From Candidatus Omnitrophota bacterium (GTDB taxonomy: Bacteria > Omnitrophota > Gorgyraeia > Duberdicusellales > 4484-171), in NCBI GenBank assembly GCA_021735445.1, contig JAIPHA010000001.1, forward strand, positions 24,396-88,395: a stretch of DNA of 64,000 nucleotides. Direction: 5' to 3'. Positions 3,595 to 64,000 of the stretch are shown piece after piece. Both the position numbers and the translations under genes were made by a program. Every line of letters starts with the position of its first letter. Position 1 is the first letter of the stretch. The notes under the pieces are model-generated. The model was not told the origin of the DNA, did no database searches, and saw nothing but the letters and a program-made list of their open reading frames with translations.

Positions 3595-3596
3595 AA

Positions 3597-12969: not shown

Positions 12970-12984
12970 GCAGGGGTAAGACGT

Positions 12985-18211: not shown

Positions 18212-18236
18212 ATAGAGATAAAGAGGTGTCCTGAGT

Positions 18237-18734: not shown

Positions 18735-18741
18735 TTTTACA

Positions 18742-19821: not shown

Positions 19822-19847
19822 ATTACTATAGAAAAGGGAGGTAGGTT

Positions 19848-20510: not shown

Positions 20511-20513
20511 AAT

Positions 20514-21566: not shown

Positions 21567-21570
21567 AAAA

Positions 21571-39666: not shown

Positions 39667-39672
39667 TCGATT

Positions 39673-42378: not shown

Positions 42379-42431
42379 TATTTTTAATCATTTTAATGAA
42401 ATGGAAACACTTGTCAACCAAGACTAGGTTA

Positions 42432-45538: not shown

Positions 45539-45620
45539 GGCTTAAAAATTATATCTTGAACAGGCATCAGACGCAACCATTATATGTTTTCTTTCTTTTT
45601 CTTTCTTTTTTAAAGTGGTC

Positions 45621-45629
45621 TGATATAAT
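45621..45629 (+). promoter_or_regulatory. extended -10 element TGaTATAAT in a divergent intergenic region
   Basis: An exact TGnTATAAT in the 174-bp gap between the divergently transcribed operons. Confidence 0.3.
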
Positions 45630-45652
45630 TAAAAAATTGACGGTAAACAGCT

Positions 45653-45681
45653 TTGACAAAAAATAGGAAAAGAGATATGAT
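45653..45681 (+). promoter_or_regulatory. sigma70-like promoter candidate, TTGACA-17 nt-TATGAT
   Basis: A consensus -35, a 17-nt spacer and a near-consensus -10, lying 32 nt upstream of the 45713 ATG (Wzm-like gene). Confidence 0.4.
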
Positions 45682-45712
45682 TTATTCTAAGTTTTAAGCA
45701 AAAAATAGTAAG

Positions 45713-46492
45713 ATGATTATAAACAGAATAAAAAAACTCTTTTATCAGCGCGATATCTTAGCGGAGATGGTTTTTAAGCAGTTTAGGGCCAGTTATTCCG
45801 GAGCGATGTTGGGGGTCTGGTGGGCTATAATCATTCCTTGTATTCTCGCTGTCTGTATAAATATAATTTTTACCACTGTTTTTAAAATAAACATCGAAAA
45901 TTTCACTTTTTTTGTGCTTTCGGGGATATTGCCCTGGTTGTTTTTTTCGGCAGCGGTGGTTGAGGCTACTAACTCATTTTTAACCGATGCCGCAATGTTT
46001 AGGCAAAAAATGCTGCCTTTGGAGTTTGTGCCGTTTAAATCTGTATTATCTAATTTTTTAAGTTTTTTAATCGGCATCGGTTTTCTTTTGCCTTTTTTTA
46101 TTATTTCTAATATCCAAATTATTAAAGTTTTACCGGCTTTAATTTTTGTGTTTATCTTTAATTTAATTTTTATTTTGGGGTTGTCTCTTATTTTTGCCGT
46201 GATCAATGTTTATTCCCGGGACATAATTCATTTTCTCTCTGTGGGCCTGATGGTTTGGTTTTGGATTACTCCTGTTTTTTATTCTTTGAATATGGTGCCT
46301 TATCCCTACCGTTGGATATCTATTTTAAATCCCATGACCTATTATGTAACTTCTTACCGCAGTATTTTATTTTACGGTAAGCTCCCTTCTTTACCGGTAG
46401 CAGTTACGGGCATTGTTTTAGCTTTAATTTTTATTATAGCCGGGAATTTATTTTTAATTAAAAAAGAACCGTCACTATTAAAACAACTATGA
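45713..46492 (+). CDS. ABC-2 type transporter permease (Wzm/TagG-like polysaccharide exporter)
   Basis: 259 aa with 6 TM helices, and the ABC-2 start DILAEMVFKQFRASYSGAMLGVWWAII. Confidence 0.75.
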   Translation: MIINRIKKLFYQRDILAEMVFKQFRASYSGAMLGVWWAIIIPCILAVCINIIFTTVFKINIENFTFFVLSGILPWLFFSAAVVEATNSFLTDAAMFRQKMLPLEFVPFKSVLSNFLSFLIGIGFLLPFFIISNIQIIKVLPALIFVFIFNLIFILGLSLIFAVINVYSRDIIHFLSVGLMVWFWITPVFYSLNMVPYPYRWISILNPMTYYVTSYRSILFYGKLPSLPVAVTGIVLALIFIIAGNLFLIKKEPSLLKQL

Positions 46493-49400: not shown

Positions 49401-49869
49401 TTTGAGCCTGGCAGGCGATTGGGCCCACCTTCCTGTTTCTCAGGTGTGGAAGATAAAACTAAGAGAAGATAAGCGAATAATTTGGGAGGTAGAAACTGAA
49501 GTCCATCAAGAGTTAGAGTTGGAGGCAATACAAAATAATCTTATGGTTTCACCTCTATATAAAGAGTGGGCGGCGCCTGGCTTTAGCCGGGGTGAATTTA
49601 GCGAGATTTTTACCGGTAGTTATGATATATTGCCCTTTAGGGCCTGGAGCGGGCCGGCTGACAAACTATTAGTTAAAAGCAGAGAGTTACCTGATTTGAG
49701 TTTTAGGCGGGATAAAACAAGCGGGGGGCTGCAAGGGCTTTTAGAAAATAGTGATTATTTTTACCGGTCTCGTTTGATTCAGTACCAACAGATTGGTGTC
49801 GAAAAATTGAAGCCGGGTAAATATAGTAATTTTAAAGGAGTGGTTGAAATTGAGCCGAAAGAAAATTAA
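46489..49869 (+). CDS. Wzt/TagH-like ABC ATPase with an about 870-aa C-terminal extension of four tandem repeat domains
   Basis: Walker A AQNGAGKTT, signature YSQGMYLRLAF (the Wzt/KpsT YSxGM type), Walker B ILLIDDIIAVGD and H-loop VTHQ, followed by four repeats of about 200 aa each. Confidence 0.8.
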   Translation: MKAVNLDNIWEKYRIKFVKENGVSWREVWALREVNFAVEQGEVLGIIAQNGAGKTTLLKIIAGMLMPDRGKVNVRGKVSTLMELGAGFNREFTGRENIILNARIYGLSKKDINIKMQEVIEFAGLGEFIDAPIKYYSQGMYLRLAFSLAISLDPDILLIDDIIAVGDEASSCRCIDKIRQLKKEGKTIILVTHQMDMVAQMCDRVIHLNKGKIIDAGSPGKIIPAYLETVGRKEGIKVFEKYDFRVVFNNGRLSLSYAGNPLTGKMGVSAVWFNPRINGWVSSKDLNWQNIAKDNASFIFEGSHQGFDSLQVWTISLEKDILEWTVKFEGKEIQNPHFDLGFRALYDHWVVEKKEEEFLPFLSKLNWQDLGTHDCFFGGVGMFSSQKSGSLPAFIFGQKKQAQKIKLFNTGYHNETRVAQSLLDSNCAEFYIRLFSQKRNLLKYMEKKKKELPASYRFCRLEYKHLRIEASGREKTIKIYYRGREVTAGCGMSVSFQRKEEWYSAVSARWKLVQKEDCIQGELFWPDFRLRQVWEISIKEGGVCWKADIDTAKINEIDDFKMGILVREEYKRYVSGHQEGVFPKDFTNWMDIDLEDKKAEHLGTNASGDLPGIILTNKGRWMNVVENSDKKNRCRALQFRLPFRNFKEKGFSTEINIFKDNLFAGKCVEEKKPFWPSNLVSVSAAAVKVGIDLDAKKIRLFYQGREISERACLRNHLLISEKGFESRFMGWQVEQISKDKAVLTMSIKNFPVVERWEFFCGEDNSLKIRIDLEVGKKVRIIDNGLSLELKDGYQSWFTAGEKGDFIAKKYENDTGAIRMKDSNVSAICLKSGESKNFPDLTFAFNPSCQDRIINLYKKRPGNDYGSSIGIYTAKLSTRKKSFFKPGSYNLLEGKMFFGKQPGLSSFQKKTNKVKLARPGLELNFYQGKGRLYWKGKEITAGLGIYSCFCHFGIWHDSSLAAWEVIEQNRDNLSLAGDWAHLPVSQVWKIKLREDKRIIWEVETEVHQELELEAIQNNLMVSPLYKEWAAPGFSRGEFSEIFTGSYDILPFRAWSGPADKLLVKSRELPDLSFRRDKTSGGLQGLLENSDYFYRSRLIQYQQIGVEKLKPGKYSNFKGVVEIEPKEN

Positions 49870-50260
49870 AGAAGCTGAAATATTTAAGAATCAGTTAAGA
49901 GTTAATTTTAAAGATAAAGCAATCCATATTTTTTGGCAAGGGAATAAGATAACTGAAAAAATAGGCCTAAATTCAGCGATAAGTACTTTTGGCCTATGGA
50001 CTAATTCTTCTTTTGCCGAATGGGAGGTAGTTGGCAGCGGCGAGAGCTGGATGAAATTAAAAGCCAGATGGAGTTATCTGCCGGTTATCCAATATTGGTC
50101 TCTAAAATTAGGCGATAATTATCAGATTGATTTAGAGATAGATATGGAGGTAGAGGAAGAGCTTTGTATTAAAGAGACTAAGCTATTGTTGTTGGTTTCT
50201 CCGCTTTATAAAAACTGGTTTAGCGGGTTTAGGGAGGAAAATTTTCCTCAGCTTAACGGT
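47230..50260 (+). repeat. five tandem divergent copies (about 0.55-0.65 kb each) of a protein-domain-coding repeat spanning the Wzt 3' region and the next gene's 5' end
   Basis: Visible by eye in the translations (FYQGREI..., LYWKGKEITAG..., IFWQGNKITEK... and recurring W-E-V/I...LPV-Q-W-I-L blocks). The copies are diverged at the nucleotide level. Confidence 0.55.
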
Positions 50261-52114
50261 TGGCAAGAGTTGTATAATTTTAGAGGCCACTCTGTTTTAA
50301 CCGGTGTGCGTTTTCCTCTTGACGGCGCGGTTCTTCCTCCGGTAGCTTTAGAATTTAAGCCTAAGAAGGGCTTAGAAAATTATACTTTTATCGAGAATCC
50401 TTCCGCGGAAATAAATACGCGTTTTCTGGGTGAAAAAATATTATTTAAGGGCAAGGAAAGGTATTTTTCTCCCGGATATCATAGCTGGTTTAGGACAAAA
50501 ATTAAAGTATTTGAAACTGAACAAGAAGTTAGCCGGTATATCGAGAGGCAGCGGAAGAAGTATTTTAGGAAAAAGAAACAAAATGTTTTAAAAAATAAAC
50601 CTTTAAATTATAAGCCTGCTGAGAAAGTGTTGTTAGCAAATATGCCTTGGCAGGATAAGGCGCGTCAGGGGGTGCGGTCGGGATCGCGTTGGCCGCATAT
50701 GAAAGATAAAAGCGAAGGCAAATATTTGCCTTTTCCTTTTTTTTTAGCCTATAGCGCTTCTTTATTAAGGGCTAATGGGGTTAAGACGGATTTAATCGAT
50801 GCGATTGCAGAAAGAATGCAATCTGATGATTTTATCGAAACTCTTGCCGGTAAAAATATCGATTACTTGGTTGTAGAGACTTCGGTCCCTTCTTTTGATT
50901 ATGACATTAAATTATTGGAGAGAATTTCTTTATTGGGGATTAATATTATTTTATGCGGCCCTCATCCTTTGATAGCCTCTTCTGATTTTTTAGCTGAAAA
51001 TGATTTTATTGATTTTGTTATTTTTGGCGAATATGAAGTTACTCTGCTTGAGCTGCTTAAGTTTTTTTCTAAAAATGACAAAGATTTTTCCTCGATTAAA
51101 GGCTTGGTTTGGCGCAGGAGAAGCGGAGAGGTGGTAAAGAATGAAGCCAGGCCGCCTTTTGACATAAATATTTTGCCTTGGCCGCATCGGGAAAGTTTGC
51201 CGATGGAAAATTATTGGGACCTTCCCGGAGATATTCCTTATCCTTCGGTTCAGATGGTCGCATCCCGGGGATGCCCTTTTGGCTGTAATTTCTGCCTCTG
51301 GCCGCAAGTGCTTTTTGGAGGCAGCAGTTATCGGATTAGGAATATTAAAGATTGTATTGATGAGATGGAGTTTATGGTGAGAAAAAAGGGTTACAAATCA
51401 GTATATTTTGACGATGACACTTTTAATATCGGGAAAAGAAGGATGATTGAATTTTGTAATGAGATAATTAAAAGAGGGTTGGAAGATACCCCTTGGGCGA
51501 TTATGGCCAAGGCTGACCTGATGGATGAAGAAATTTTAGATAATATGAAAAAAGCCGGATTGTGCGCTGTAAAATATGGGGTAGAAAATGCCGAACAAAG
51601 TTTAGTTGACCGGTGCGGCAAGGGATTGGATTTAGCTAAAGCAAAAAGGATGATTGATTACACTAAAAGCTTGGGGATTAAGGTGCATCTTACTTTTTCT
51701 TTTGGCTTACGCGGCGAAACTAAAGAGACTATTGAAAAGACTATCGATTATGCCTTGAAATCAGACCCTGATTCGATACAGTTTTCCATAATCACTCCTT
51801 TTCCGGGGACACGGCTTTTTGAGGAATTGGAAAAGGAAGGAAAAATTTTAACCAGGGATTGGTCTTTATATGACGGGCATAACAGCTGTGTGTTTGCGCC
51901 CGATAACCTTTCCTGGCAGGATTTAAAAGATGCTAAAGATTACGCTTATAGGCTATGGGCTGATTGGCAGATGCGCAAAAGAGGCTGGCGGGGGAATCTT
52001 AATAGATTTTATAATTACAGTAAGTCCGGCGGGGTAAAAAAAGCTTTGTTAAAGAGCGGAAAATATTTAGGCTATCTTGTTTTCAAGCGAAGAAAATTTA
52101 TGGGAAAAATTTAA
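49844..52114 (+). CDS. B12-binding radical SAM protein with an N-terminal copy of the Wzt repeat domain
   Basis: The N-terminal approximately 150 aa are homologous to Wzt repeat 4 (LVSPLYKNWFSGF versus MVSPLYKEWAAPGF). They are followed by a B12-binding-like domain and VASRGCPFGCNFC. Confidence 0.7.
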   Translation: MKLSRKKIKEAEIFKNQLRVNFKDKAIHIFWQGNKITEKIGLNSAISTFGLWTNSSFAEWEVVGSGESWMKLKARWSYLPVIQYWSLKLGDNYQIDLEIDMEVEEELCIKETKLLLLVSPLYKNWFSGFREENFPQLNGWQELYNFRGHSVLTGVRFPLDGAVLPPVALEFKPKKGLENYTFIENPSAEINTRFLGEKILFKGKERYFSPGYHSWFRTKIKVFETEQEVSRYIERQRKKYFRKKKQNVLKNKPLNYKPAEKVLLANMPWQDKARQGVRSGSRWPHMKDKSEGKYLPFPFFLAYSASLLRANGVKTDLIDAIAERMQSDDFIETLAGKNIDYLVVETSVPSFDYDIKLLERISLLGINIILCGPHPLIASSDFLAENDFIDFVIFGEYEVTLLELLKFFSKNDKDFSSIKGLVWRRRSGEVVKNEARPPFDINILPWPHRESLPMENYWDLPGDIPYPSVQMVASRGCPFGCNFCLWPQVLFGGSSYRIRNIKDCIDEMEFMVRKKGYKSVYFDDDTFNIGKRRMIEFCNEIIKRGLEDTPWAIMAKADLMDEEILDNMKKAGLCAVKYGVENAEQSLVDRCGKGLDLAKAKRMIDYTKSLGIKVHLTFSFGLRGETKETIEKTIDYALKSDPDSIQFSIITPFPGTRLFEELEKEGKILTRDWSLYDGHNSCVFAPDNLSWQDLKDAKDYAYRLWADWQMRKRGWRGNLNRFYNYSKSGGVKKALLKSGKYLGYLVFKRRKFMGKI

Positions 52115-52118
52115 CTAA

Positions 52119-55100
52119 ATGGAATATTGGGATAAATTATTTGCGGCAATAGAAGAAGGCAGCGGCCGCCTTTGCGGGCCGCATACTTTACAAATTGACC
52201 TTACCGATAGGTGCAACAACGATTGTATAGGCTGTTGGGTCCACTCTCCTTTATTAGATAAAAAAGAAATTTTTCCAAATGGCAAAAAGGACCTCCCGTT
52301 TAGCCAGGTAAGGCATTTGATAGAAGACAGCGCTAAATTAGGAGTTAGAGAAATTATTCTTTCCGGTTCGGGAGAGCCTTTTCTTTATCCGGAGATAGAA
52401 GAAGTAATAAAGTTGATAAAAAACCGTGGAATTTATTTAAATATTATTACCAATGTTTTATTAATGGAGGAAAAGCTAGCCGAGCTATTAGTTAAATATC
52501 AAGTTGATTTGATAACCGCAAGCATTTGGGCTGGAAGCCCTGAAATTTATTCTTTGACTCATCCCGGCAAAAAAGAGAAAGATTTTTGGAAAATTAAAAA
52601 AAATTTATTAAAGTTAGCTTACTATAAGAAAAAATATAAATCATTATCGCCGCATTTAAAAATATACAATGTAATTTGCAGTAAAAATTATAGCGATCTG
52701 GAGGCAATGGTAGAGTTTGCTAAAGCTAGCGACAGTGACTCGGTAGAGTTTCAGGTTGTCGATATTATTCCCGGCCGGACCGATTCTTTAGCCTTAGACA
52801 GAAAACACAAGGAAGAAATAACTAATCAGCTGAAAAAAATAAGGCAGAAAGAGGAGATGGTATTTTTCAACTTTCCTCGGGATGTTGACTTAGAAGAGTT
52901 AATCGAAAAAGAAAATCTTGATTTTGGCAAAGTTTGGAAAAACAGAAAAAAAGGTTTTAGCGCTAAACAACTGCCTGATTCCTTGGTTTGCCCCAAAGGT
53001 TATCAGATTGATGAGCAACGGGAAATCGTTTCTGAGTCTATTTCTGTTACTGAGACAAAACCGGCTGTGTTTTGGTATAAATTTAAAAGCGATTTTTGCA
53101 ATAGTTGTGAAGATAACAACAGCTGCCTGGCTCGAGATAAAGCAATTAGCGTAAAGCTTCTTAGTATTTTGGGGATAGGCACTTTGTTAAGAAGAATATT
53201 TCGTTCTGATTTAGAAAAAGGTATTTATGAAAAACAAATTAATTATTTTCCTTGTTATATCGGTTGGTATTATGCCCGGATTTTAACCGACGGGACTATA
53301 ACGCCTTGTTGTAAAGCAGTCAATTTTCCTTTAGGTAATATCGGCAAAGATTCTTTTTTTAATACCTGGAACTCGCCGGCTTACAATGAATTTAGAAAAA
53401 AAGCTAAGGATTTAAATAAAAGCGACCCATACTTTGCCTCGATAGATTGCCTAAGGAGTTGTGATAATTGGGGGATGAATCTTACGGTAGGCAAAAGGCT
53501 AAAACAATTTAAAAACATCAATCCTTTAATAGTTAAAAATCAAGGCCAAAGGATAGTTATACTCGCGAAAAGTTTTACGGCCGGAAATCTTAATATCGGA
53601 GATCATAACTTTGGCAAAAATATAGTTGTAGACGGAGGCCAAAAAGAAGGCTTTGCCCGTTATCTGTTTAAGGTGCGGCAAGCAAAGAATTTTGAGTTGT
53701 GGGCTCGTTATGCTAGTGGAAGTTTTCGCCCGGTAGATATTTATATCGACGGAAAAATAGTTAAAAAGTCTGGGCTGAGTGAAATAACCGGGGGGTGGAC
53801 GGTTAATTATTTGAAATGGAATAAAGAAGCGGAAGTTAAATTAACTGAAGGAGAACACATTTTAGAGATAAGCTCAAAACAATGTATCCCTCATATTGAA
53901 CAATTAGGGTTATTCGAAACGGGAGCGTTACCCCGTCAGTTAAAGAAGGAAAGCAAAGCCGGTTATTGGCGGATGTTTAGCGAACATATTCTTGATAAAG
54001 GCTTGGCCGGCGCCTTAAGGAGAGTGCTTGATAATCTCGCTCCGGATCAGATTAAAGACCGTTATCTGGAGATGCTAGGCATTTATGACCGGCGGTATGG
54101 TTATAAAGGCCCTTTTCATCTACAGATAGATTTAACTAATGATTGCAATAACAATTGTATTGCTTGTTGGTGCAACTCTTCGCTTTATAAAAAGCCGCGT
54201 TTGTCTAAAGAAGAAAAAAAACAATACCTTCCCTTTAGGTTAGTTAAAGAGCTTTTAGATGATGCTTCTCGAATGGGGGCAACCGAGGTATATTATTCCG
54301 GGTCAGGAGAACCTTTTATGCATCCCCGAATTATGGATATTTTAGAGTATACTAAAAAAAAGGGGTTAATTTGCCATGTAAATACTAATTTTACTCTCCT
54401 AAATAAAGAAAGGCTGGACCGCCTTATCAAGATAGGCTTGGATTACCTGACAGTAAGCACCTGGGCCGGAAGCAAAGAGATATATGCCAAGACTCACCCT
54501 AATAAAACCGAATCCGAGTTTGAGAAAATAAAAGATAATCTTATTTATCTTAACAAAAACAAAAAATGTGCCCCCTCAATTAAGCTTTATAATGTGCTTT
54601 TTAATATGAATTATTTTGAAATTGATAAGATGATTGAGTTTGCGAAAAAAACCGCTTCGGAGTCGGTGGAGTTTACTTTAGTCGACACTATCCCCGGTGT
54701 TACCGACGTGTTAGCTTTAGGCGAGAGCCAGTTAAAGGAGCTTAAAAGAAGATGTGAGGATATTCAATATAAGTTAGAGCAGGAAAGTAAACTAAAAGGA
54801 AGCAGTTTGACCCTTTTTCAGTTTGATCAGTTTTTACGGCGAGTTTCGAATTCGGCCGATGCCAAACAGGCAAAATATGATAAAGGGGTAATCGATAGCA
54901 TGCCTTGTTATATTGGTTGGCTTTTTGCCCGGATAGTGCCTAACGGAGAGGTCCATTCCTGCTTAAAAGCGCACCGGATACCGACCGGTTCTTTATACTC
55001 TAAAAAGTTTTCAGAGATTTGGAATTCGCCTCAGCAAGCTAATTTTCGAAAAAAAACCTGTGTTTACCGTAAAGATGACCCTTTTTTTAGATTAATTGGC

Positions 55101-56378
55101 AATGATCCGGAAACAAAGGAAGCGGGGTGCTATAAAAGCTGTGACGATATTGGCAGGAACAGCTGGATGCATAAAAGAATGACGATGTTGACCCGGCCGG
55201 AAAAAGCTTTTTTAAAAGTTGCCGCTAAGGGCTTAAAATTGGCCAGGAAGATTAATCTGCCTCGAAAGACTTCTTTAAGACAAGGTAAGAATCTCCGCAT
55301 CGCGGGGATTCGGCAGGGGCGTCAAGCTTTTCAAGGGCCTGAACAGGTAGTGGTTGATTTAACCAATAGATGTAATTTGCGTTGCCTGTCTTGTTGGCTC
55401 TATTCTCCTTTGCTTGCCGGAAGCCAACCATCTTATGATTCATTAAATCAAGAGTTACCCGGGAAGAAGGTGTTTAAACTTATTGATGATTTAGCCTCTA
55501 TGGGCACCGAACGGATACGTTTTACCGGGGGAGGAGAGCCTCTTATCCATAAAGATTTTTTTCGCTTAGTTGAATATGCGCATAAGCGGGGATTATTGGT
55601 AGGGGTTACCACTAATTTCGGCTTAATTGATAAAAAGGGAATTTCCAGGCTTGTAAACGCAGGTTTAGAAGAGTTGTGCATTAGTATTTGGGCCTCTAAC
55701 CTTGGTACTTATTGTAAGGTTCACCCGGGGACTGATTCCCGCTATTTTGAAAAACTAAAAAATAATTTAGCTTACTTACAAAAAATGAAAACAGGTAAAC
55801 CGCGGATTACTTTTGCTAATGTAATTATGAATAAAAATGTTAACGATTTTACGGAGATGTATAATTTCGGGCGTAAATTCGGGGCAGATGCTTTGTATTT
55901 TACTATAGTAGATATTTTATCCGGCCAGACCGATTCTCTTTTGTTAAATCCCAAACAGCGGGATCAGCTAAAAGCAGAAGCCTTAGCGGTTGAAGAAAAA
56001 GCCGGTAGAGAGGGGATAGAATTAGAGTTTTTTGAAGGGTTTATGAATAGGTTGGACCAAGATAAAGAAGATTTTCAAAAAGGAGAATATGATAAATCTT
56101 TAGTCAACCAGATACCTTGTTATGTGGGATGGATATTTTCCCGTATTTTGGCCGATGGGAGCATAGCGCCTTGCTGCAGGGGGGTTAAGAAGATAATGGG
56201 AAATATTAATAAAGAAAGTTTTAAAAATATATGGTTTTCGGATAAATACAATGAATTTAGGGCTAAAGCTAAATATTTATCCAAACAAGATAGTTATTTT
56301 AAAGAAATAGGCTGCACTAAAGAGTGTGATAATCTTATGCATAATCAGGAAATGGAGAGAAGGATTTTAGAAGGGTGA
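52119..56378 (+). CDS. triple radical SAM/SPASM fusion protein (1419 aa) with an inserted beta-sandwich (CBM-like) domain
   Basis: Three colinear units carry CNNDCIGC, CNNNCIAC and CNLRCLSC. Each is followed by SGSGEP or GGGEP and a SPASM-like C-Y-I/V-G-W...PCC/SC...C...C block. The insert lies at about aa 470-620. Confidence 0.75.
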   Translation: MEYWDKLFAAIEEGSGRLCGPHTLQIDLTDRCNNDCIGCWVHSPLLDKKEIFPNGKKDLPFSQVRHLIEDSAKLGVREIILSGSGEPFLYPEIEEVIKLIKNRGIYLNIITNVLLMEEKLAELLVKYQVDLITASIWAGSPEIYSLTHPGKKEKDFWKIKKNLLKLAYYKKKYKSLSPHLKIYNVICSKNYSDLEAMVEFAKASDSDSVEFQVVDIIPGRTDSLALDRKHKEEITNQLKKIRQKEEMVFFNFPRDVDLEELIEKENLDFGKVWKNRKKGFSAKQLPDSLVCPKGYQIDEQREIVSESISVTETKPAVFWYKFKSDFCNSCEDNNSCLARDKAISVKLLSILGIGTLLRRIFRSDLEKGIYEKQINYFPCYIGWYYARILTDGTITPCCKAVNFPLGNIGKDSFFNTWNSPAYNEFRKKAKDLNKSDPYFASIDCLRSCDNWGMNLTVGKRLKQFKNINPLIVKNQGQRIVILAKSFTAGNLNIGDHNFGKNIVVDGGQKEGFARYLFKVRQAKNFELWARYASGSFRPVDIYIDGKIVKKSGLSEITGGWTVNYLKWNKEAEVKLTEGEHILEISSKQCIPHIEQLGLFETGALPRQLKKESKAGYWRMFSEHILDKGLAGALRRVLDNLAPDQIKDRYLEMLGIYDRRYGYKGPFHLQIDLTNDCNNNCIACWCNSSLYKKPRLSKEEKKQYLPFRLVKELLDDASRMGATEVYYSGSGEPFMHPRIMDILEYTKKKGLICHVNTNFTLLNKERLDRLIKIGLDYLTVSTWAGSKEIYAKTHPNKTESEFEKIKDNLIYLNKNKKCAPSIKLYNVLFNMNYFEIDKMIEFAKKTASESVEFTLVDTIPGVTDVLALGESQLKELKRRCEDIQYKLEQESKLKGSSLTLFQFDQFLRRVSNSADAKQAKYDKGVIDSMPCYIGWLFARIVPNGEVHSCLKAHRIPTGSLYSKKFSEIWNSPQQANFRKKTCVYRKDDPFFRLIGNDPETKEAGCYKSCDDIGRNSWMHKRMTMLTRPEKAFLKVAAKGLKLARKINLPRKTSLRQGKNLRIAGIRQGRQAFQGPEQVVVDLTNRCNLRCLSCWLYSPLLAGSQPSYDSLNQELPGKKVFKLIDDLASMGTERIRFTGGGEPLIHKDFFRLVEYAHKRGLLVGVTTNFGLIDKKGISRLVNAGLEELCISIWASNLGTYCKVHPGTDSRYFEKLKNNLAYLQKMKTGKPRITFANVIMNKNVNDFTEMYNFGRKFGADALYFTIVDILSGQTDSLLLNPKQRDQLKAEALAVEEKAGREGIELEFFEGFMNRLDQDKEDFQKGEYDKSLVNQIPCYVGWIFSRILADGSIAPCCRGVKKIMGNINKESFKNIWFSDKYNEFRAKAKYLSKQDSYFKEIGCTKECDNLMHNQEMERRILEG

Positions 56379-56411
56379 TTTAAACTAATCTGTATTAAGA
56401 GGAGTTATCAG

Positions 56412-59150
56412 ATGGAACTTAAAGATAAAAGAACAGAGAAAGAAAGCAGTTTTAAACCGGCTTTTATTCAGATAGACTTTCAGATTACCGCTAAATGCAA
56501 CGCTAAATGTATGTTTTGCCAGTGTTGGCGGGATAGCGCTAATCTTGGCGCTAAGGATTTACCGGGAGAAAAATGGATAGAGTCTGCTCAAAAGTTAAAA
56601 GATTTTACTAATCTGGATTTGGTTTGCATTGGGGGCGGCGAACCCTTGCTTTATCCGCATCTTTTTCAGGTGTTAAAGGGGCTGCGCCGCCTGGAAATAC
56701 CTTCTGTGGTAGTCACCAACGGGAGCCTCTTTTCAGAGGAGAATTGCAAAAAAATTATTGATTCAGGGGTAGGGCATATTGATTTTTCTCTGGATTCTTT
56801 TTCTGAGAAGCATAACCGGATGCGTGGATTTCCCGGATTGTTTGAAAAGTGCTGTGAAGCGATGGATACTTTAAAAAGAATTTCTCCCAAGATAAGCCTG
56901 GGGGTATCTACTTTAATTTGCGGGGAAAATATTTCTGAATTACCTGAGTTTACTGAATGGAGTTTAGGCAATTTACCGATTGATGCTATCAATTTTCAGG
57001 CTTACAACCAGGTCGTGGATTATTCCGGCAATAATTGGTGGGAAAAATCACTTTTATGGCCAAAGAATAGAGAAACCGTAATTAGAGTAATGGATTGTCT
57101 GATAAAAAAAGGAGAAGAAGGAGCAAGGATAGCCAATAATCCCATTCAGCTGGAGAAATTTAAAAGGTATTTTCTAAATCCGGAAAGTAAACTTAATATA
57201 AAATGCCCGGCCGGAGCTTTTAATTTTTCTGTTAGCCATCAGGGTAATATAATCGGATGTATCGCAGAATCGCCGCTGGGAAATATTAAAGAGAGTAATC
57301 CTGTCGATGTATACAAGCAAAAATTCGGCAATATTAGGCAGAAAGCCAGCCAGTGCAAGGAAAACTGCCATTTTTTAATTAACTGTTATTTTCCTCTTCA
57401 TTGGAAGCGCTGGAATAGTATAGTCAAAGATATGGTAAAAGAAGGCGAGGAGGATTATAAGCCGGGTAAGGTGATTTTGCCTCCGGAGATAAAAGAAATT
57501 ACTTCTGTCCCGGTTGAGGGGTATCCGGATTTAATCAATCATAAAGACTATAGCCATTTGGATTCAATCGGAAAATATAAAGATAGCTTTGAAAACAGAA
57601 AGATGCCCTGTACTCCGGAAGGTTTGCCCCAAATTTACCTTTGCGGGGATAGTTCGGAGGTTCACCGCTGGGGAGTGGATTTAGAAGAAAATGATTTTTT
57701 TAAGCAGTTAGATAAGCTTAAACAGTTATCCCGAGAGAAGTTGGTATATCATACGGTAGTTGGAGTAAGGAGGACGAATTTTTACCGTTTAGGGAAAATA
57801 TATAATTTGATAAGAAGAGTGAAGGAAGAAAAGGAAGTTGATTTTCCCAAGTTCAACATTAAACCGTTTAAAGACGTAAAAGAACGGTTTTACCGGTATT
57901 TAACTGTGATAAATAGCTTTACAAAGAAAGAGGGAGTAGAATTCAGGATAACAGACAAGCGGTTGGATCAATTGTTAGGCATTATTGAAGAAAGCCAAAA
58001 ACAAAAAGGTTTAGAAGAAAATGATTTTTGGCGCGCTTTGGGCCCGGTATGCAAGGATGCGTTTATTGGACCGCGTTTTATTTTGCTTGATTTAGCCGGC
58101 CGTTGCAACCTTGATTGCGTCTATTGTAGAAGATTCTCTCCTTGGAATAAAGAATATTGGCGGAAGCAGCATCCGGAGCTTTCCGGGTTTATAGATTTTG
58201 AGGTTGTTAAAAATGTGCTTTTAGACGCTAAGGAGATGGGGGTAGAAACAGTGCTTTTGGTAGGAGGCGGAGAGCCGACTCTTCATCCTAAATTTAAAGA
58301 AATAATTGAGCTTATCAGCAAATTGGGAATGAAGTTTAATTTTTCCACCAACGGAGTTTTGCTGGGTTTATATAATAATTATTTAGTAGACGGCCATTGT
58401 GACAGCGTTACCGTTAGCCTTTCTTTTGCCAGCAAAAAATCATTTTCTTCTATCCGTCCGACTTCTAATAGCAAGGTTATGAAAAATATAGAAAAAAATG
58501 TAAAAAAATTAGCAAAATTAAAGGCGAGCCGAAAAGCTGCCTATCCCGGGATTATTGCTTTGTATGCTATTTGTAAATATAATTATAAAGAGATTTTAAA
58601 GATGGTAGCTCAGGCAAAAAAAATAGGCGCAGATACGATATGGTTTCAGTTGACTCATTTAGAAGATTTCAGCCGGGACAAGCTTTATATTGAAGCTAAG
58701 GAGATGGAAAAGGTAAAAGAGTTATTGAGCCGGGCAAAAGCTCTTGCTCAGAAAAAAGGATTGTCTTTTAATTCGTTTATCGAATTTGAGATGAATCATT
58801 ATGACCAAAAACGGGGCGATTGGTCTAAGAAGGGATTGTTGAAGCAAGGCTGTTTTGTCGGCTGGCATTTTTCTTTTATTCATCTAAGGCAGGAAGTTTT
58901 TATGTGCTGCGGGGCCAAAACCGTGGGTATTTTAGATAAAGGAGGAAGAGGCTTTAAAGACCTTTGGTTTTCCGATGCATATCGCCGCTACCGCAATGAC
59001 GGCCTTATAATGCATAGAGAAAATCCTCTTACCATCTATGGTAAACCTTTGTATGAAAAATATTGTGATTCCTGTGACAACCATGACCAAAATACGAAAA
59101 TGTTAAAGTTGATAAAAAAATATAAGTTAGCTGAATTTGTGCAGCGGTGA
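56412..59150 (+). CDS. double radical SAM fusion protein (912 aa)
   Basis: Unit 1 has CNAKCMFC with GGGEPLL and a CPAG...GCIA...CKENCH cluster. Unit 2 has CNLDCVYC with GGGEPTL and GCFVGW...MCCG...CDSCDNHD. A strong SD (AAGAGGAG) precedes the gene. Confidence 0.75.
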   Translation: MELKDKRTEKESSFKPAFIQIDFQITAKCNAKCMFCQCWRDSANLGAKDLPGEKWIESAQKLKDFTNLDLVCIGGGEPLLYPHLFQVLKGLRRLEIPSVVVTNGSLFSEENCKKIIDSGVGHIDFSLDSFSEKHNRMRGFPGLFEKCCEAMDTLKRISPKISLGVSTLICGENISELPEFTEWSLGNLPIDAINFQAYNQVVDYSGNNWWEKSLLWPKNRETVIRVMDCLIKKGEEGARIANNPIQLEKFKRYFLNPESKLNIKCPAGAFNFSVSHQGNIIGCIAESPLGNIKESNPVDVYKQKFGNIRQKASQCKENCHFLINCYFPLHWKRWNSIVKDMVKEGEEDYKPGKVILPPEIKEITSVPVEGYPDLINHKDYSHLDSIGKYKDSFENRKMPCTPEGLPQIYLCGDSSEVHRWGVDLEENDFFKQLDKLKQLSREKLVYHTVVGVRRTNFYRLGKIYNLIRRVKEEKEVDFPKFNIKPFKDVKERFYRYLTVINSFTKKEGVEFRITDKRLDQLLGIIEESQKQKGLEENDFWRALGPVCKDAFIGPRFILLDLAGRCNLDCVYCRRFSPWNKEYWRKQHPELSGFIDFEVVKNVLLDAKEMGVETVLLVGGGEPTLHPKFKEIIELISKLGMKFNFSTNGVLLGLYNNYLVDGHCDSVTVSLSFASKKSFSSIRPTSNSKVMKNIEKNVKKLAKLKASRKAAYPGIIALYAICKYNYKEILKMVAQAKKIGADTIWFQLTHLEDFSRDKLYIEAKEMEKVKELLSRAKALAQKKGLSFNSFIEFEMNHYDQKRGDWSKKGLLKQGCFVGWHFSFIHLRQEVFMCCGAKTVGILDKGGRGFKDLWFSDAYRRYRNDGLIMHRENPLTIYGKPLYEKYCDSCDNHDQNTKMLKLIKKYKLAEFVQR

Positions 59151-59159
59151 TAAACAATT

Positions 59160-60617
59160 ATGGCAGTTAACAATGATCCAGCTAGAAAAGTTTTGATAGC
59201 GGTATGCCCGATGTGGGACATAAGATGGCCGCCTCTGGGGTTAAGCTATTTGGCTTCTTATCTTGAGAGCCAGGGTATTGCCGTTGATATTTTAGATATA
59301 AATATAGATGTTTATTCAAATTCGTCCACCGAGCGAAAAGAACTTTGGAGGATGGAGAGTTATAATCATTGGTTTTTTGAAGATAAATTCGAACGATTGG
59401 CTTTTCAGGATCAGATAGACCAATATGCGCAAAACATTTTAGATAAGGGTTATCAAGTAGTAGGTTTTTCTTTATATGCGGCTAATATTTTATTTTCGGT
59501 TAAACTGGCTACTATTTTAAAAAAAGCAAACCCCGAGCTATTCATTATCTTCGGCGGGCCGGCTTGCTGGTTCCTTCACGACCATCCTAAGATGCCTATC
59601 CAATATATGGTTTCACCTAAAACCAGCGAATCCTTCATTGAACCCGGCGTGGTAGATGTTTTTGTAAGAGGAGAAGGGGAAGAGGCGGCTAAAAGGGTAA
59701 TACTATCACATTTTAATAGTTATAAAGACAAGGTTCCCGGCACAGTAGTTTATTCGCAAGGAAGATATATTATCCAGGAGCCGCCGCAGCGGATAAATGA
59801 CTTAGATAAATTACCCTATCCGGATTGGGAAAGGGTTTCCCTGGACCTCTACCGGGAAGAGATAGGGGTGCCGATATTATTTAGCAGGGGGTGTGTTAAC
59901 AGATGCGCTTTTTGTATTGATTGGAAAATCTGGCAGAAAAAATACCGGGTTAGGTCCGCCGAAAATATTTTTCAGGAAATGAGGGAAGTAGTAGAAAAAT
60001 ATAAGGTGAATGTATTTGTATCCAATGATTTATTGTTTAACGCAAGATTAGATGTATTGGAAGATTTAGCCGGCTTTATTATAAATTCGGGATTAAAGAT
60101 ATCCTGGAATGTCCAGGGGTTGATAAGGGCGGACATGGGGTTTCCTTTATTAAGAAAAATGCGGGTAAGCGGCCTTGAGAGGGTGACTTATGGAGTTGAG
60201 AGTTTATCTGACAAAGTGCTTAAAGATATGGGGAAGCCGTATAATTTTTCCGATATTCAAAAGGTATTAAGAAACAGCAAAAAAGCCGGAATTGTTACCG
60301 CTTTTAACCTTATTGTGGGTTTTCCGACAGAAAGTGAAAAGGATTTTATCCAAACAAAAGAAAGGCTGGCTTTGATAAAAGATGATGTTGACATGATAGC
60401 CGGATTACAGGGTTGCGGCTTAAAAGACGGTTCTGATATATATATGCATCCTGAAAAATATTCTATTTTACCGGAGCTAAAAAATGATTTTTGGAAAAGC
60501 CTGAGAGGGAATAATAATTTAGAAGTCAGACAAAGAAGGATTAATGAGTTGTCTGATTTTGCTCAAAAATTAGGTTTAAAGATTGAATTTAAAGGGATTC
60601 CCGCTCCAAGCAGTTAA
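59160..60617 (+). CDS. B12-binding-domain radical SAM protein
   Basis: N-terminal KVLIAVCPMWD...LGLSYL...VVGFSL (B12-binding-like), then FSRGCVNRCAFC. Confidence 0.7.
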   Translation: MAVNNDPARKVLIAVCPMWDIRWPPLGLSYLASYLESQGIAVDILDINIDVYSNSSTERKELWRMESYNHWFFEDKFERLAFQDQIDQYAQNILDKGYQVVGFSLYAANILFSVKLATILKKANPELFIIFGGPACWFLHDHPKMPIQYMVSPKTSESFIEPGVVDVFVRGEGEEAAKRVILSHFNSYKDKVPGTVVYSQGRYIIQEPPQRINDLDKLPYPDWERVSLDLYREEIGVPILFSRGCVNRCAFCIDWKIWQKKYRVRSAENIFQEMREVVEKYKVNVFVSNDLLFNARLDVLEDLAGFIINSGLKISWNVQGLIRADMGFPLLRKMRVSGLERVTYGVESLSDKVLKDMGKPYNFSDIQKVLRNSKKAGIVTAFNLIVGFPTESEKDFIQTKERLALIKDDVDMIAGLQGCGLKDGSDIYMHPEKYSILPELKNDFWKSLRGNNNLEVRQRRINELSDFAQKLGLKIEFKGIPAPSS

Positions 60618-60629
60618 AATGGTTTATCT

Positions 60630-63600
60630 ATGAAAACAGAAAAAAAATCTTTTCCCAGATATTTATCTATTCAAACCACTTCTTTATGTAATGCTTCTTG
60701 CCTGTTTTGCCCTTACGATGAGGTGAAGAGTTTATTCCCGGCTAAAGTTATGGAGCCCGGCCTCTATAAAAAAATAATAGATGAATCGAGCGAGCATAAG
60801 GAAATAGAAAGAATTATACTGTATATGAACAACGAGCCTTTAACTGATCCGGATATTATAGGAAGGATTAATTATGCAAAAGAAAAGTTGCCTGGGGCAA
60901 GCGTGCATCTTTTGACTAACGGAACGTTGCTTGATGAGAGGATGGCGGATCAGCTTATAAAATCCCGGCTGGATTGGCTGGGGATTAGCTTTCATGGAAT
61001 AAGGAAAGAAACAATTGAAAAAACAATGGGGATTTCTTATGATTTAGCCTTTAGCCGGATTAATAAATTTATCGAAAAGGTTAAAAAAAGTAAAAAATTA
61101 AAAGAATACTTGATGGTTACTTTGATAAAGCATAAATATTTAAGCGAAGAGGAAAAAAATCAGGCGATAAAATTTTGGAAAAGGAAGGGAATAGAAAGAA
61201 TATCTTATTTTAAAAGGCCAATTTCGCGGGCAGGCAACATTAAGAGGTTACCTAAAGTATACAACCAAGGCAAGATTACCGGTTGTAAATCTATCTGGGC
61301 CGATGAAATGCTGCATGTTGTAGAAGACGGGAAAGTGGTTTTGTGTTGTATGGACTGGAAGAGGGAAGTTGTTTTGGGAGACCTTAACAATCAGACGGTT
61401 AAAGAAGTATGGCAGGGCAGAAGAAAAAAAACATGGGAGATGATTCAGAGGCAAAGCCAAATGCCGGCTGACTTTTTGTGCAGGAGGTGCGAGGAAGCGG
61501 TTGTTGAGGAGCCGGCAAATGTTTTACTGGTGAACCTTCCTCCCTGGGGTGTAGATAACCCACCTTTGGCGGTAGCTTGCCTGGGTGGCTATCTCCAGGC
61601 AAAAAATATCGAAGTTGATATTTTCGATATGAATATAGAACTTTTCAATAATAGCCCTGCCAAAGATAGGCATCTTTGGAGCATGAACTATTCTCATCTT
61701 TGGCGGCAGAAAAAAGATTATGAAAAGATACGGAGATTGCTGGATAGCCAAATTAATTATTTAATTGAAAAAGTTATAAATTCTGATAAAAAAATAGTTG
61801 GTTTTTCTCTGCCGACTAATTGCTCGCTTTTTATCCTGAGAGAGATAACAGAAAAGCTTAAAAATAGCGGCAGCAAAAAGATAATTATTGCCGGGGGAGG
61901 GTCGGTTTCGATAAAAGAACAAAGAGAAGAACTACACCATATAGCCGGACAATTTATAGATTACTATGTTGCCGGTGAAGGAGAGGAGGTTCTTTATAAA
62001 ATTATTGAATGCCTGAATCAAAAAAACCCAGCTGGTATAGAAAGTTTAGAGGGGGTATTTACAAAAGGAAAAAATAAGGAGTCCGGCTTAGCCCAGATAA
62101 AGGATTTAAATTCTTTGCCTTATCCTTCTTTTGATAAGTTGGATTTAAAAAATTACCAAGCGCCGGAAAGTTTGCCGATGGAGTTTTCCCGGGGGTGTGT
62201 GGGCAGGTGTACTTATTGCGCTTTTAAAACGGTTTCGCCTCTTTTTAGAATAAAATCAGCTTCTTACTTATTTCATCAAATCAGGTCTCACCAGCAAAAA
62301 TACGGAATGAAGCATGTGAGTTTTTCTGATGCTGCGATTAATGGTAATCCGGCTGTTTTAGGGGAGTTGTGCGATTTGTTAATTAAAGAAAAAGTAGAGG
62401 TGAAGATGTCGGCTTTGGCGATCCCCCGCCCAGAGATGACTTTGGTTTTTTTAAAAAAAATGGGCCGGGCCGGATTTTACCGCCTGGAGTATGGAGCAGA
62501 AAGCGGCTCCGATAAAGTTTTAGGCCTTATGCGCAAAATTTTTACGGTTAAGTCCGCCCAACAGGTAATAGAAGATTCGTCGAAGGCGGGAATCAAAGTT
62601 TACCTTTATTTTATTGTAGGGTATCCGGGCGAATCAAAAGAAGACTTTTTAAAGACTAAAAAATTTTTGAAAAAAGTTGCTCCTTTTGTAACTATGATTA
62701 AATCAATCAACCCTCTTTTTGTTATGGCCGGTTCGGAGTTATCTTGTTTGCCTGAAAAATACGGCATTAATTTCGGCGAAAAAAACCGGGATATTAATTG
62801 GTTTACCAAGGATAATACTATTGATATCAGGAAAAGACGGGTTGAGGAGTTAAAGAATTATGCAAGGCAAATAAGAATCCCTTTTACCGAAGAAGGTGAG
62901 CATTTGGAATTTACCGGATTTTTTCCTGCAAAAAGGTGTGAAATTTTATTTCTTAACTTACCTCCCTGGGCTCAGGATAATCCTCATATCGGGGTAGGAT
63001 ACCTTTGTTCATATTTGCGTAAGCGGGGTGTTTTTCCTAGGGTGATTGACTTAAACAAGAGGTTTTTTCTAAATTATCCCGAATATAAAATGCTCTGGCA
63101 TGTGGAAAATAAAAATTTCTGGTCTAATCCAGACACTTATCCTTTAGTTGCGGATATATTTAAAGAGGGGATGAATCAGGCTATCTCTGAGGTTGTTAAG
63201 GTAAATCCCCTATTGGTAGGAATTTCTGTGGTGGACCCTAAGGAAAGGTTGGCTATAGATTTTATTAAACGGATAAAAAGGCGGCTTCCGGACAGTAAAA
63301 TAATATTGGGCGGGCCGGCTGTTTCTACCGCCAAGCAACGACAAATTTTTTTAGATCAAGCCGGCAGAGATATTGATTTGTTTGTTATCGGAGAAGGGGA
63401 AGAACGGTGCTATACAGCTGTAAACAGAGCAAAAGAGAAAAAAAGTTTAGCGAAAATAAACGGAACTATAGTTAAGACAGCAGACGGCTGGGAAGAAACT
63501 TTTCTTAAACCAAGCAAAACTATCGCGCAGATTCCGTTTCCTACTTACCAAGAGTTTGATATGGAAAGTTACGGAAAATCTCTCTTGGTAGAGTGGTCAA

Positions 63601-64000
63601 GGGGCTGCCATAACCGTTGTTCATTTTGTAAAAATTGGCGCCTTTTTCCTTTTTACCGGCCTAAGGCGCCGGAGAAAGTCCTGGATGAGTTAAAATACCA
63701 GATTAATATCTACGGGATAAGAAAATTTACGGTAGTGGATTCTATCTTAAATGGAGACCCTGATAAGCTTTATCAAGTTTGTTCTTTGATTATTGATAAT
63801 GATTTGGATATAGATTGGAGTGGCCAGATAGCGCCCAGTGAAAAAATGAGTTATAGCTTTTTTAAACATATGCGTCAGTCTGGGTGCCGGCAGCTACAGA
63901 TTGGGGTTGAAAGCGCAGATAACAGAGTGTTAAAAAAGATGCGTAAAAGTTATACGGCCGAAATGAGCCAAAAGGCGGTACGAAACGCCAAAAGAGCGGG
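60630..64000 (+). CDS. multi-domain radical SAM fusion, 3'-truncated by the window end (more than 1123 aa)
   Basis: Absent from the ORF track because it has no in-window stop. My codon-by-codon translation from the ATG at 60630 finds no stop through 64000. Rounded to codon boundaries, domain 1 is about 60630-61515, domain 2 about 61516-62943 and domain 3 about 62944 to beyond 64000. Domain 1 carries CNASCLFC with a C-terminal CC...CRRC cluster. Domain 2 has a B12-binding-like N-terminus followed by FSRGCVGRCTYC. Domain 3 has a second B12-binding-like N-terminus followed by WSRGCHNRCSFC. Confidence 0.7.
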   Translation, partial: MKTEKKSFPRYLSIQTTSLCNASCLFCPYDEVKSLFPAKVMEPGLYKKIIDESSEHKEIERIILYMNNEPLTDPDIIGRINYAKEKLPGASVHLLTNGTLLDERMADQLIKSRLDWLGISFHGIRKETIEKTMGISYDLAFSRINKFIEKVKKSKKLKEYLMVTLIKHKYLSEEEKNQAIKFWKRKGIERISYFKRPISRAGNIKRLPKVYNQGKITGCKSIWADEMLHVVEDGKVVLCCMDWKREVVLGDLNNQTVKEVWQGRRKKTWEMIQRQSQMPADFLCRRCEEAVVEEPANVLLVNLPPWGVDNPPLAVACLGGYLQAKNIEVDIFDMNIELFNNSPAKDRHLWSMNYSHLWRQKKDYEKIRRLLDSQINYLIEKVINSDKKIVGFSLPTNCSLFILREITEKLKNSGSKKIIIAGGGSVSIKEQREELHHIAGQFIDYYVAGEGEEVLYKIIECLNQKNPAGIESLEGVFTKGKNKESGLAQIKDLNSLPYPSFDKLDLKNYQAPESLPMEFSRGCVGRCTYCAFKTVSPLFRIKSASYLFHQIRSHQQKYGMKHVSFSDAAINGNPAVLGELCDLLIKEKVEVKMSALAIPRPEMTLVFLKKMGRAGFYRLEYGAESGSDKVLGLMRKIFTVKSAQQVIEDSSKAGIKVYLYFIVGYPGESKEDFLKTKKFLKKVAPFVTMIKSINPLFVMAGSELSCLPEKYGINFGEKNRDINWFTKDNTIDIRKRRVEELKNYARQIRIPFTEEGEHLEFTGFFPAKRCEILFLNLPPWAQDNPHIGVGYLCSYLRKRGVFPRVIDLNKRFFLNYPEYKMLWHVENKNFWSNPDTYPLVADIFKEGMNQAISEVVKVNPLLVGISVVDPKERLAIDFIKRIKRRLPDSKIILGGPAVSTAKQRQIFLDQAGRDIDLFVIGEGEERCYTAVNRAKEKKSLAKINGTIVKTADGWEETFLKPSKTIAQIPFPTYQEFDMESYGKSLLVEWSRGCHNRCSFCKNWRLFPFYRPKAPEKVLDELKYQINIYGIRKFTVVDSILNGDPDKLYQVCSLIIDNDLDIDWSGQIAPSEKMSYSFFKHMRQSGCRQLQIGVESADNRVLKKMRKSYTAEMSQKAVRNAKRA

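Follow-up and report, generated by a model that had tools for sequence, protein, structure and literature searches.

The 64,000-nucleotide stretch of a Candidatus Omnitrophota genome analysed here (GenBank assembly GCA_021735445.1, contig JAIPHA010000001.1, positions 24,396 to 88,395 of the forward strand; hereafter the window) ends in five co-directional open reading frames (ORFs), named g1 to g5, which occupy 49844-64000 on the + strand and encode radical S-adenosylmethionine (rSAM) enzymes, several of them as fusions. Directly upstream of g1 lie the adjacent, overlapping wzm and wzt genes of an ABC exporter.

49844-52114, + strand: g1, 756 amino acids (aa), TTG start.
52119-56378, + strand: g2, 1419 aa, triple rSAM fusion.
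56412-59150, + strand: g3, 912 aa, double rSAM fusion.
59160-60617, + strand: g4, 485 aa.
60630 to past 64000, + strand: g5, more than 1123 aa visible before the window end cuts the gene; about 1317 aa when complete.

An earlier note on this DNA had described five genes on one strand with gaps of 50 bp or less and ten rSAM motifs (1+3+2+1+3), with at least 20 in the window, and both descriptions hold. Spacings run from -26 to +33 bp: wzt and g1 overlap by 26 bp, and gaps of 4, 33, 9 and 12 bp follow through g5. A regular-expression search for CxxxCxxC returned 1+3+2+1+3 = 10 motifs in g1-g5 and 20 in the whole window, and PF04055 scored above its gathering score in 10/10 units when the fusions were cut into units for the Pfam scan, with one domain per motif. 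The motifs fall in rSAM cores, as each stands at the start of the PF04055 match in all ten units scanned singly, and the match covers positions 2-166 of the 166-position profile for most of them. Full-length g5 orthologues (1317 aa in contig L001, which is 93% identical to the window, and 1273-1311 aa in three other genomes) hold three rSAM units each, so that ten is the complete count. Within the window the units of g1-g5 are old paralogues, with 27-43% identity to one another.

The B12-binding family PF02310 exceeded its gathering score (32.1 bits) in g1 (34.4), g4 (49.5), g5 unit 2 (36.8) and g5 unit 3 (33.6), all of which place a Rossmann-type B12-binding domain N-terminal to the rSAM core, the class B layout. 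The name 'B12-rSAM' given to g1 and g4 by the earlier note is a domain-family label and carries no evidence of bound cobalamin; AprD4, the closest solved relative of g1, has a B12-type domain that does not bind cobalamin (PMC12931638). The SPASM family PF13186 passed its cut-off in g5 unit 1 and in all three g2 units; neither g3 unit reached it when scanned singly (14.5 and 16.0 vs 21.5 bits). A full SPASM domain has seven cysteines and two auxiliary clusters, and the truncated twitch domain has one cluster. Because only four C-terminal cysteines per g2 unit are invariant, fitting a single auxiliary cluster, the g2 units called SPASM in the earlier note appear better described as twitch-like, despite their Pfam match.

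Wzt, rSAM enzymes and a glycosyltransferase of the GT-C type have one carbohydrate-fold domain in common, a galactose-mutarotase-like supersandwich.

43268..45538, - strand: GT-C (PMT_2) glycosyltransferase, 756 aa, PF13231, divergent from wzm.
45653..45681, + strand: sigma-70-like promoter match (11/12; consensus match only) in the divergent intergenic region upstream of wzm.
45713..46492, + strand: Wzm, ABC-2 permease (PF01061, E 1.8e-10).
46489..47193, + strand: Wzt nucleotide-binding domain (PF00005, aa 31-161).
47194..49863, + strand: Wzt C-terminal extension, four tandem supersandwich repeats of ~220 aa.
~47194-47853, 47875-48522, 48535-49191 and 49204-49863, + strand: the individual Wzt repeats, from self-BLAST, alignment and a hidden Markov model (HMM; independent E-value, iE, 2e-46 to 3e-59 each).
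49850-50575, + strand: supersandwich N-domain of g1.

The complete Wzt (46489-49869, 1126 aa) had no match to Wzt_C (PF14524) in the Pfam scan; its best NCBIfam models were TagH and Wzt/RfbE, and that of Wzm was the galactan Wzm/RfbD model, all below cut-offs. A sixth supersandwich copy forms the C-terminus of the GT-C enzyme (nt 43274-43906, aa 546-756; HMM iE 1.2e-10). The family is small, with 629 representatives among 1.84 billion proteins, and in a sample of 59 its Pfam partners were confined to Radical_SAM/SPASM/B12-binding, ABC_tran and GT-C families (PMT_2, PMT, GT22). A second module of carbohydrate type is predicted within g2, where structure prediction gives aa 456-650 a beta-sandwich fold of the CBM6/35 type; a Pfam scan of this module gave no match at E 0.1. 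The promoter-like site is the best match in the 19 kb scanned (45000-64000), and that scan found no terminator-like sites in the short gaps downstream of it.

To place the locus among others, one genome per GTDB species was scanned with an alignment of g1, which revealed a relative in at least 380 genomes; 80 loci were fetched and parsed by BLAST. Conserved synteny across genomes bears out the link to Wzm/Wzt proposed in the earlier note, and the cassette of Wzm, Wzt, a B12-type rSAM and a twitch rSAM recurs across Omnitrophota and in other phyla, among them DPANN archaea and Patescibacteria. Loci L002 (59% identity) and L004 (44%) hold Wzm, a long Wzt, g1, g2, further rSAM fusions and two GT4 genes. 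L001 (~93% nucleotide identity) starts inside g1, keeps g1-g5 and continues with two GT4 genes. L005 (Ca. Kaelpia) has the same gene set with the catalytic part of g1 fused to g2 in a protein of 1917 aa with four rSAM cores. More generally, of 71 informative loci 29 had a g2-type twitch unit fused to a g1-type enzyme and 26 more had the two side by side (55/71), and Wzt lay within 6 kb upstream of the g1-type gene in 27/53 loci; in some others it was farther upstream, past extra rSAM arrays. In the fetched loci the supersandwich was carried by 35 Wzt proteins (1-5 copies), 43 g1-type enzymes and 25 twitch-type rSAMs, or stood alone.

Motifs numbered from 1 to 13 per ~22-kb locus, the same units were fused in orders that vary widely between genomes, and ~340-aa genes resembling g3 unit 1 form tandem arrays in L038, L058 and L077. 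In L003 (2.2-Mb contig ERZ21862645 ctg38498l, 15989-22451) a 2742-aa protein, of which 2190 aa are visible and show at least five rSAM motifs, is preceded by a canonical Wzm/Wzt pair (with Wzt_C), a phosphodiesterase and a GT4-rSAM-SPASM fusion. Three protein clusters of such fusions (P0077, P0080, P0081) are 48-52% identical to a g2 unit, and one of the three adjoins a canonical Wzm/Wzt pair having Wzt_C. Most loci are labelled Omnitrophota; others come from Woesearchaeota, Patescibacteria, Aminicenantes, Margulisiibacteriota and Caldisericota metagenome-assembled genomes (MAGs). The closed genome of the DPANN Archaeon GW2011_AR15 (L060; CP010425.1, 2-13908) carries Wzm-Wzt together with rSAM orthologues (identities of 52-57% for g3, 48% for the catalytic part of g1 and 40% for the g2-type unit), which implies that the cassette has moved between the bacterial and archaeal domains. 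Directly after the last rSAM gene, the two closest loci encode a 122-130-aa signal-peptide protein (L001 13840-14232; L002 16904-17272). No conserved small precursor ORF was found across the loci.

An exact-sequence look-up of g2 returned no record, and its context was drawn from homologues. Some 70 protein clusters from NCBI, JGI, ENA and Logan assemblies match g2 at full length (43-94% identity); where a source is named it is Candidatus Omnitrophota/Omnitrophica, and Ca. Kaelpia for extended forms of 1913-1954 aa, which bear a fourth, B12-type unit. Among 53 full-length homologues aligned (44-60% identity), 9/9 CxxxCxxC cysteines of g2 are invariant, as are four more C-terminal cysteines per unit in the pattern Cx12Gx4C...CxxxC. 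g1 is kept at full length in more than 120 homologues, and the best match of each fusion unit in other genomes is its positional counterpart. g3 has an intact orthologue of 903 aa in L011 and split versions in L060 and L063; in the 93%-identical L001 it is frameshifted and split by a 7-bp deletion at window ~57118 (L001 ~6373), the window copy being intact. This indel lies in an AG-rich run, AAAGGAGAAG[AAGGAGC]AAGGATAG, and is the sole frame-disrupting difference between the window and L001; population variation, slippage and an error of assembly are all possible origins. Frameshifts or chimerism, which the earlier note had named as grounds for discarding the fusions, are thus contradicted by independent homologues that keep the window fusions at full length. 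The same note had called multi-rSAM fusions very rare, which is not so inside this clade, where they are the rule. The phylum is prone to fusing enzymes into long proteins, and a 2026 preprint found rSAM domains co-occurring with sugar-metabolism domains in very long Omnitrophota proteins (bioRxiv 10.64898/2026.06.07.730766). Because gene fusion is a phylum-wide trait, we give the fusions as such less weight.

The individual units resolve as follows.

50744-51055, + strand: g1 Rossmann 'B12-binding' domain.
51257-51751, + strand: g1 rSAM core, CPFGCNFC at aa 477.
52119..53483, + strand: g2 unit 1, rSAM motif CNNDCIGC at aa 32, twitch/SPASM-like cluster domain at aa 379-448, Cys-containing insert.
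53484..54068, + strand: g2 predicted CBM35/CBM6-fold module, aa 456-650, internal.
54084..55313, + strand: g2 unit 2, rSAM motif CNNNCIAC at aa 676 and twitch-like domain.
55314..56378, + strand: g2 unit 3, rSAM motif CNLRCLSC at aa 1085 and twitch-like domain.
56412-57386, + strand: g3 rSAM unit 1.
57387-58046, + strand: g3 middle domain, aa 326-545, ~220 aa, uncharacterised.
58047-59147, + strand: g3 rSAM unit 2.
60630-61529, + strand: g5 unit 1, twitch/SPASM rSAM, best match BtrN (E 2e-10).
61530-62969, + strand: g5 unit 2, class-B-type.
62970 to past 64000, + strand: g5 unit 3, class-B-type, matching QCMT and OxsB.

Judged by sequence comparison, none of these units is orthologous to a characterised enzyme, and all NCBIfam matches were far below family cut-offs except the summed three-domain score for the N_Twi_rSAM subfamily. 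For g1, the closest relatives are HpnJ (TIGR03471, 239.9 bits against an equivalog cut-off of 577.6) and, among solved structures, AprD4 (E 5e-21); g1 falls outside HpnJ by this score, and hopanoid genes were absent from Pfam scans of the 45 window ORFs of at least 150 aa. Many g1 homologues (P0119, P0120, P0130, P0140 and others) are ~40 aa longer at the N-terminus, with a hydrophobic segment such as GGLFYAFFRGIKYFIFLLR; this is possibly a membrane anchor and is absent from window g1. In g2 unit 1, C32, C36, C39, C379, C397, C444 and C448 are invariant in the 53 homologues. Unit 2, the type that most often adjoins or is fused to a g1-type enzyme elsewhere, had no match on its own in a phmmer search of the PDB at E 1e-3, the full-length g2 query giving only weak matches to BtrN and MoaA. 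The cluster domain of unit 3 best matched the BtrN twitch domain (4m7t, E 1e-6), and weaker matches of g2/g3 were to BlsE, DesII, MoaA, SkfB and viperin. The g3 middle domain had no Pfam match and is not homologous to the CBM-like module of g2 (13% identity); in L060, L063 and L077 it accompanies unit 2 as its N-terminal domain. g4 is class-B-type (PF02310 49.5, PF04055 81.5 bits), with 9ccb as its best PDB match (E 3e-11), an entry identified as QCMT (PMC12931638), and QCMT is also the closest solved relative of g5 units 2 and 3, with OxsB matched as well. Most of the nearest characterised relatives (HpnJ, AprD4, BtrN, BlsE, DesII, OxsB) are sugar-acting, which points to sugar chemistry for these enzymes.

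The window as a whole is one very large glycan island. On the + strand upstream it encodes a GT9 heptosyltransferase, a split transketolase, a YfhO-like protein, DegT aminotransferases, a PEP-mutase-family protein, an AMP-ligase, an epimerase, a methyltransferase, three PMT_2 (GT-C) proteins, an NTP-transferase-GT2 fusion, nine more rSAM proteins and a class III aminotransferase.

35697-36326: phosphoglycosyl transferase (Bac_transf, Pfam).

On the - strand, 36334-45538 encodes a Wzx-like flippase, GT2, GT4, a B12-type rSAM, GT4, GT2 and the 756-aa GT-C enzyme, the GT2, GT4 and GT-C genes lying at 37746-45538. By Pfam, the window therefore holds the gene set of Wzm/Wzt-type export: permease and ATPase with glycosyltransferases and a phosphoglycosyl transferase. 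Within the island, the PEP-mutase-family protein adjoins the AMP-dependent ligase (12139-14490), a pair that may point to a phosphonate or other unusual substituent, and models of PhpK-like P-methyltransferases match the B12-type units weakly. The split transketolase (2731-4538; N-terminal and pyrimidine/C-terminal halves) suggests two-carbon branching of a sugar and is followed by the 970-aa YfhO-like membrane protein (4531-7443), amid rSAM/DegT genes. Two ORFs of 451 aa (10601-11956 and 30581-31936) had no Pfam match.

We consider the cluster to be probably, with considerable room for doubt, the glycan-tailoring module of a Wzm/Wzt ABC-transporter-dependent surface-polysaccharide pathway in Omnitrophota. 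A glycan substrate is supported by the common supersandwich domain, the predicted CBM35-fold module of g2 and the GT4-rSAM fusions in relatives. Pathways that depend on an ABC transporter finish the chain on a lipid carrier in the cytoplasm, and the C-terminal module of Wzt licenses export. Here, the polymer would be built on its carrier at the cytoplasmic face by the neighbouring GT4/GT2 enzymes, and the phosphoglycosyl transferase could prime that carrier. Because the chain is finished in the cytoplasm, where rSAM enzymes have S-adenosylmethionine and reductant, the ten units are proposed to act on the lipid-linked chain before export, each using a 5'-deoxyadenosyl radical to abstract hydrogen from an unactivated sugar carbon. 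For the twitch units (g2, g3 and g5 unit 1) BtrN-like oxidation or a related epimerisation, decarboxylation, deoxygenation or redox-neutral reaction would be most plausible; for the QCMT-like, Rossmann-plus-rSAM units (g4 and g5 units 2/3) it would be C-methylation; and g1 would perform an HpnJ/AprD4-like rearrangement or dehydration. The g1 supersandwich and the CBM35-like module of g2 could hold the enzymes on the chain, on Wzt or on each other, and since the same units are fused repeatedly in many orders they are proposed to work as a physical complex. The four supersandwich repeats of Wzt, in place of Wzt_C, would recognise the tailored chain for export, and the GT-C enzyme with the same domain might handle the exported chain in the periplasm. 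The earlier note had suggested processive, assembly-line-like tailoring of a polysaccharide before or during export; the glycan part of that suggestion is backed by the carbohydrate-fold domains and the GT4-rSAM fusions, and the processive part is pure inference.

A more ambitious version of this scheme is possible, and we put it forward tentatively, judging it more apt to fail than to stand. Sets of rSAM units would dock through glycan-binding modules both on the lipid-linked polysaccharide and on a Wzt bearing the same module, and would functionalise C-H bonds at many points along the chain before export, by C-methylation, oxidation, epimerisation, deoxygenation and rearrangement; combinatorial shuffling of such sets, and their horizontal exchange between ultra-small anaerobes (Omnitrophota, DPANN archaea, Patescibacteria), would diversify the cell surfaces of these organisms. 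Polymer-level editing of this kind would be the carbohydrate counterpart of proteusin peptide hypermodification.

Several observations weigh against polysaccharide tailoring. Among loci whose upstream sequence was long enough, about one quarter to one half had no detectable Wzt near the g1-type gene. YidC P1 and an NDH subunit share the supersandwich fold, with no known sugar binding there, so that the domain may be a protein-protein scaffold. The N-domain of g1 was no closer to the Wzt repeats of its own genome than to those of other genomes; as within-genome identity does not exceed between-genome identity, there is no co-evolution signal for a common ligand and no support for concerted evolution. 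Since the NCBIfam scores fall below cut-offs, no specific reaction can be assigned to any unit, and g4 and g5 units 2 and 3 are nearest to QCMT, a protein methylase, with a RiPP (ribosomally synthesised and post-translationally modified peptide) C-methyltransferase subfamily as best NCBIfam model. Finally, the enzymes could act on nucleotide sugars or on short lipid-linked oligosaccharides instead of a polymer.

This last point leads to the alternative that we take most seriously, while thinking it rather unlikely: the rSAMs would tailor monomers (nucleotide sugars) or a lipid-linked primer before polymerisation, and the sugar-fold domains would only scaffold the enzymes with Wzt at the membrane. 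In its favour, the substrates of all characterised sugar-acting rSAM relatives (BtrN, DesII, AprD4, BlsE, GenK-type) are small molecules (PMC12931638), nucleotide-sugar enzymes abound in the window (three DegT aminotransferases, an epimerase/dehydratase, an NTP-transferase), and enzyme-borne and Wzt-borne supersandwich copies show no co-evolution. Nevertheless, the typical ligands of CBM35/CBM6 and mutarotase-like supersandwich domains are oligo- or polysaccharide chains, the supersandwich is found on an exporter ATPase and a periplasmic-facing GT-C, both of which handle finished chains, and the core rSAM genes lie between wzt and GT4 genes, away from the nucleotide-sugar genes. A RiPP-like or protein-modifying system, in which SPASM/twitch and class-B units hypermodify a peptide or protein exported by the ABC-2 transporter, much as proteusin or sactipeptide pathways do, seems improbable. 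SPASM enzymes are mostly peptide maturases, the RiPP C-methyltransferase subfamily in question (TIGR03975) is the best NCBIfam model and QCMT the best PDB match for g4/g5, and a small ORF follows g5 in L001 and L002, but this ORF is the signal-peptide protein confined to those two closest loci, no conserved precursor gene was found, and all scores are well under family cut-offs. Pfam scans gave no RRE/PqqD match, the exporter belongs to the ABC-2/Wzt type with no C39-peptidase ABC exporter present, and the fused accessory domains have carbohydrate folds amid glycosyltransferase neighbours, with direct GT4-rSAM fusions elsewhere.

Lipid chemistry appears slightly less probable still. Here a membrane lipid or the polyprenyl carrier would be the substrate, in the manner of HpnJ, Tes/GDGT-MAS or 'ladderane'-type clusters, and the role of the ABC transporter would be to flip that lipid. 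HpnJ is the nearest relative of g1, there are weak matches to Tes, to GDGT-MAS and to the B12 rSAM model for 'ladderane', many g1 homologues have the hydrophobic N-terminal helix, and calls of 'ladderane-like' gene clusters have been made for Omnitrophota MAGs (PMC9902471). Against these stand scores far under cut-offs, the lack of squalene-hopene cyclase and hpnH/G/I/K when the 45 window ORFs were scanned with Pfam, and the sugar-fold modules and glycosyltransferase context, which favour a carbohydrate moiety. The reaction of HpnJ takes place on the sugar head-group of a hopanoid. The idea that the fusions are assembly or frameshift artefacts or decaying pseudogenes, to which the 7-bp split of g3 in L001 might lend colour, was rejected as barely credible: the window ORFs are uninterrupted, g2 and g1 are represented by ~70 and more than 120 full-length clusters, g3 and g5 have full-length orthologues, units best match their positional counterparts, and catalytic cysteines are invariant.

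All components of the cassette belong to known superfamilies, and what is new is the system-level combination and the common recognition domain. The earlier note regarded the locus as a candidate for an undescribed system, and the literature searched agrees: it held no account of the cassette, of an rSAM-CBM fusion or of rSAM tailoring in Wzm/Wzt pathways, a polysaccharide-directed rSAM enzyme was not described in the searchable literature, and the word 'polysaccharide' is absent from a 2026 review of B12-dependent rSAM enzymes. rSAM carbohydrate chemistry is known only on small molecules, namely aminoglycosides, nucleotide sugars and a hopanoid head-group. If glycan tailoring before export is correct, it would represent a new class of glycan modification, with C-methylated, deoxygenated or rearranged sugars inside polymers, as well as a new glycan-recognition module coupling tailoring to ABC export, and it would help to account for the surface chemistry of uncultured nanobacteria and archaea that depend on a host. 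The hypothesis is directly testable, as the two accessory domains are small and fold confidently in silico and the g1-type enzyme with its twitch partner forms a compact core pair.

Among known systems, the Wzm/Wzt O-antigen pathways of E. coli O9a and Klebsiella O12 likewise encode permease and ATPase with cytoplasmic glycosyltransferases, and the C-terminal extension of the window Wzt is placed like their chain-reading module. It differs in having four tandem galactose-mutarotase-like domains instead of the Wzt_C jelly-roll, and the genes that follow encode supersandwich-sharing rSAMs rather than a WbdD-type kinase/methyltransferase terminator. The best solved or curated relatives of the units are natural-product and related enzymes (BtrN, AprD4, DesII, BlsE, GenK/Fom3-type, OxsB, HpnJ), in which a 5'-deoxyadenosyl radical abstracts hydrogen from a sugar carbon; BtrN is a twitch dehydrogenase, AprD4 a diol dehydratase, and HpnJ catalyses a ring contraction. 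Those are single-domain enzymes of small molecules, whereas here up to three units (at least five in L003) are fused, the enzymes bear modules of glycan-binding fold and sit in an export operon, and scores are below cut-offs.

In the polytheonamide (proteusin) pathway, several rSAMs (the class B methylases PoyB/PoyC and the epimerase PoyD) functionalise one polymer before export. PoyB and PoyC are listed in a review (PMC12931638). By analogy, the window enzymes, which also comprise several rSAMs including the class-B methyltransferase type, might make many C-H functionalisations on one polymer. The substrate there is a ribosomal peptide with a leader, whereas here no conserved precursor gene accompanies the enzymes and the recognition modules are carbohydrate-fold. 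FbiC (CofG+CofH) and MJ0619 are two-domain rSAM fusions. Like the window proteins, they join more than one rSAM core in one polypeptide for one pathway (FbiC is mentioned in PMC11917521). They have two cores and small cofactor substrates, in contrast to the three to at least five cores found here, with interspersed binding modules and variable order.

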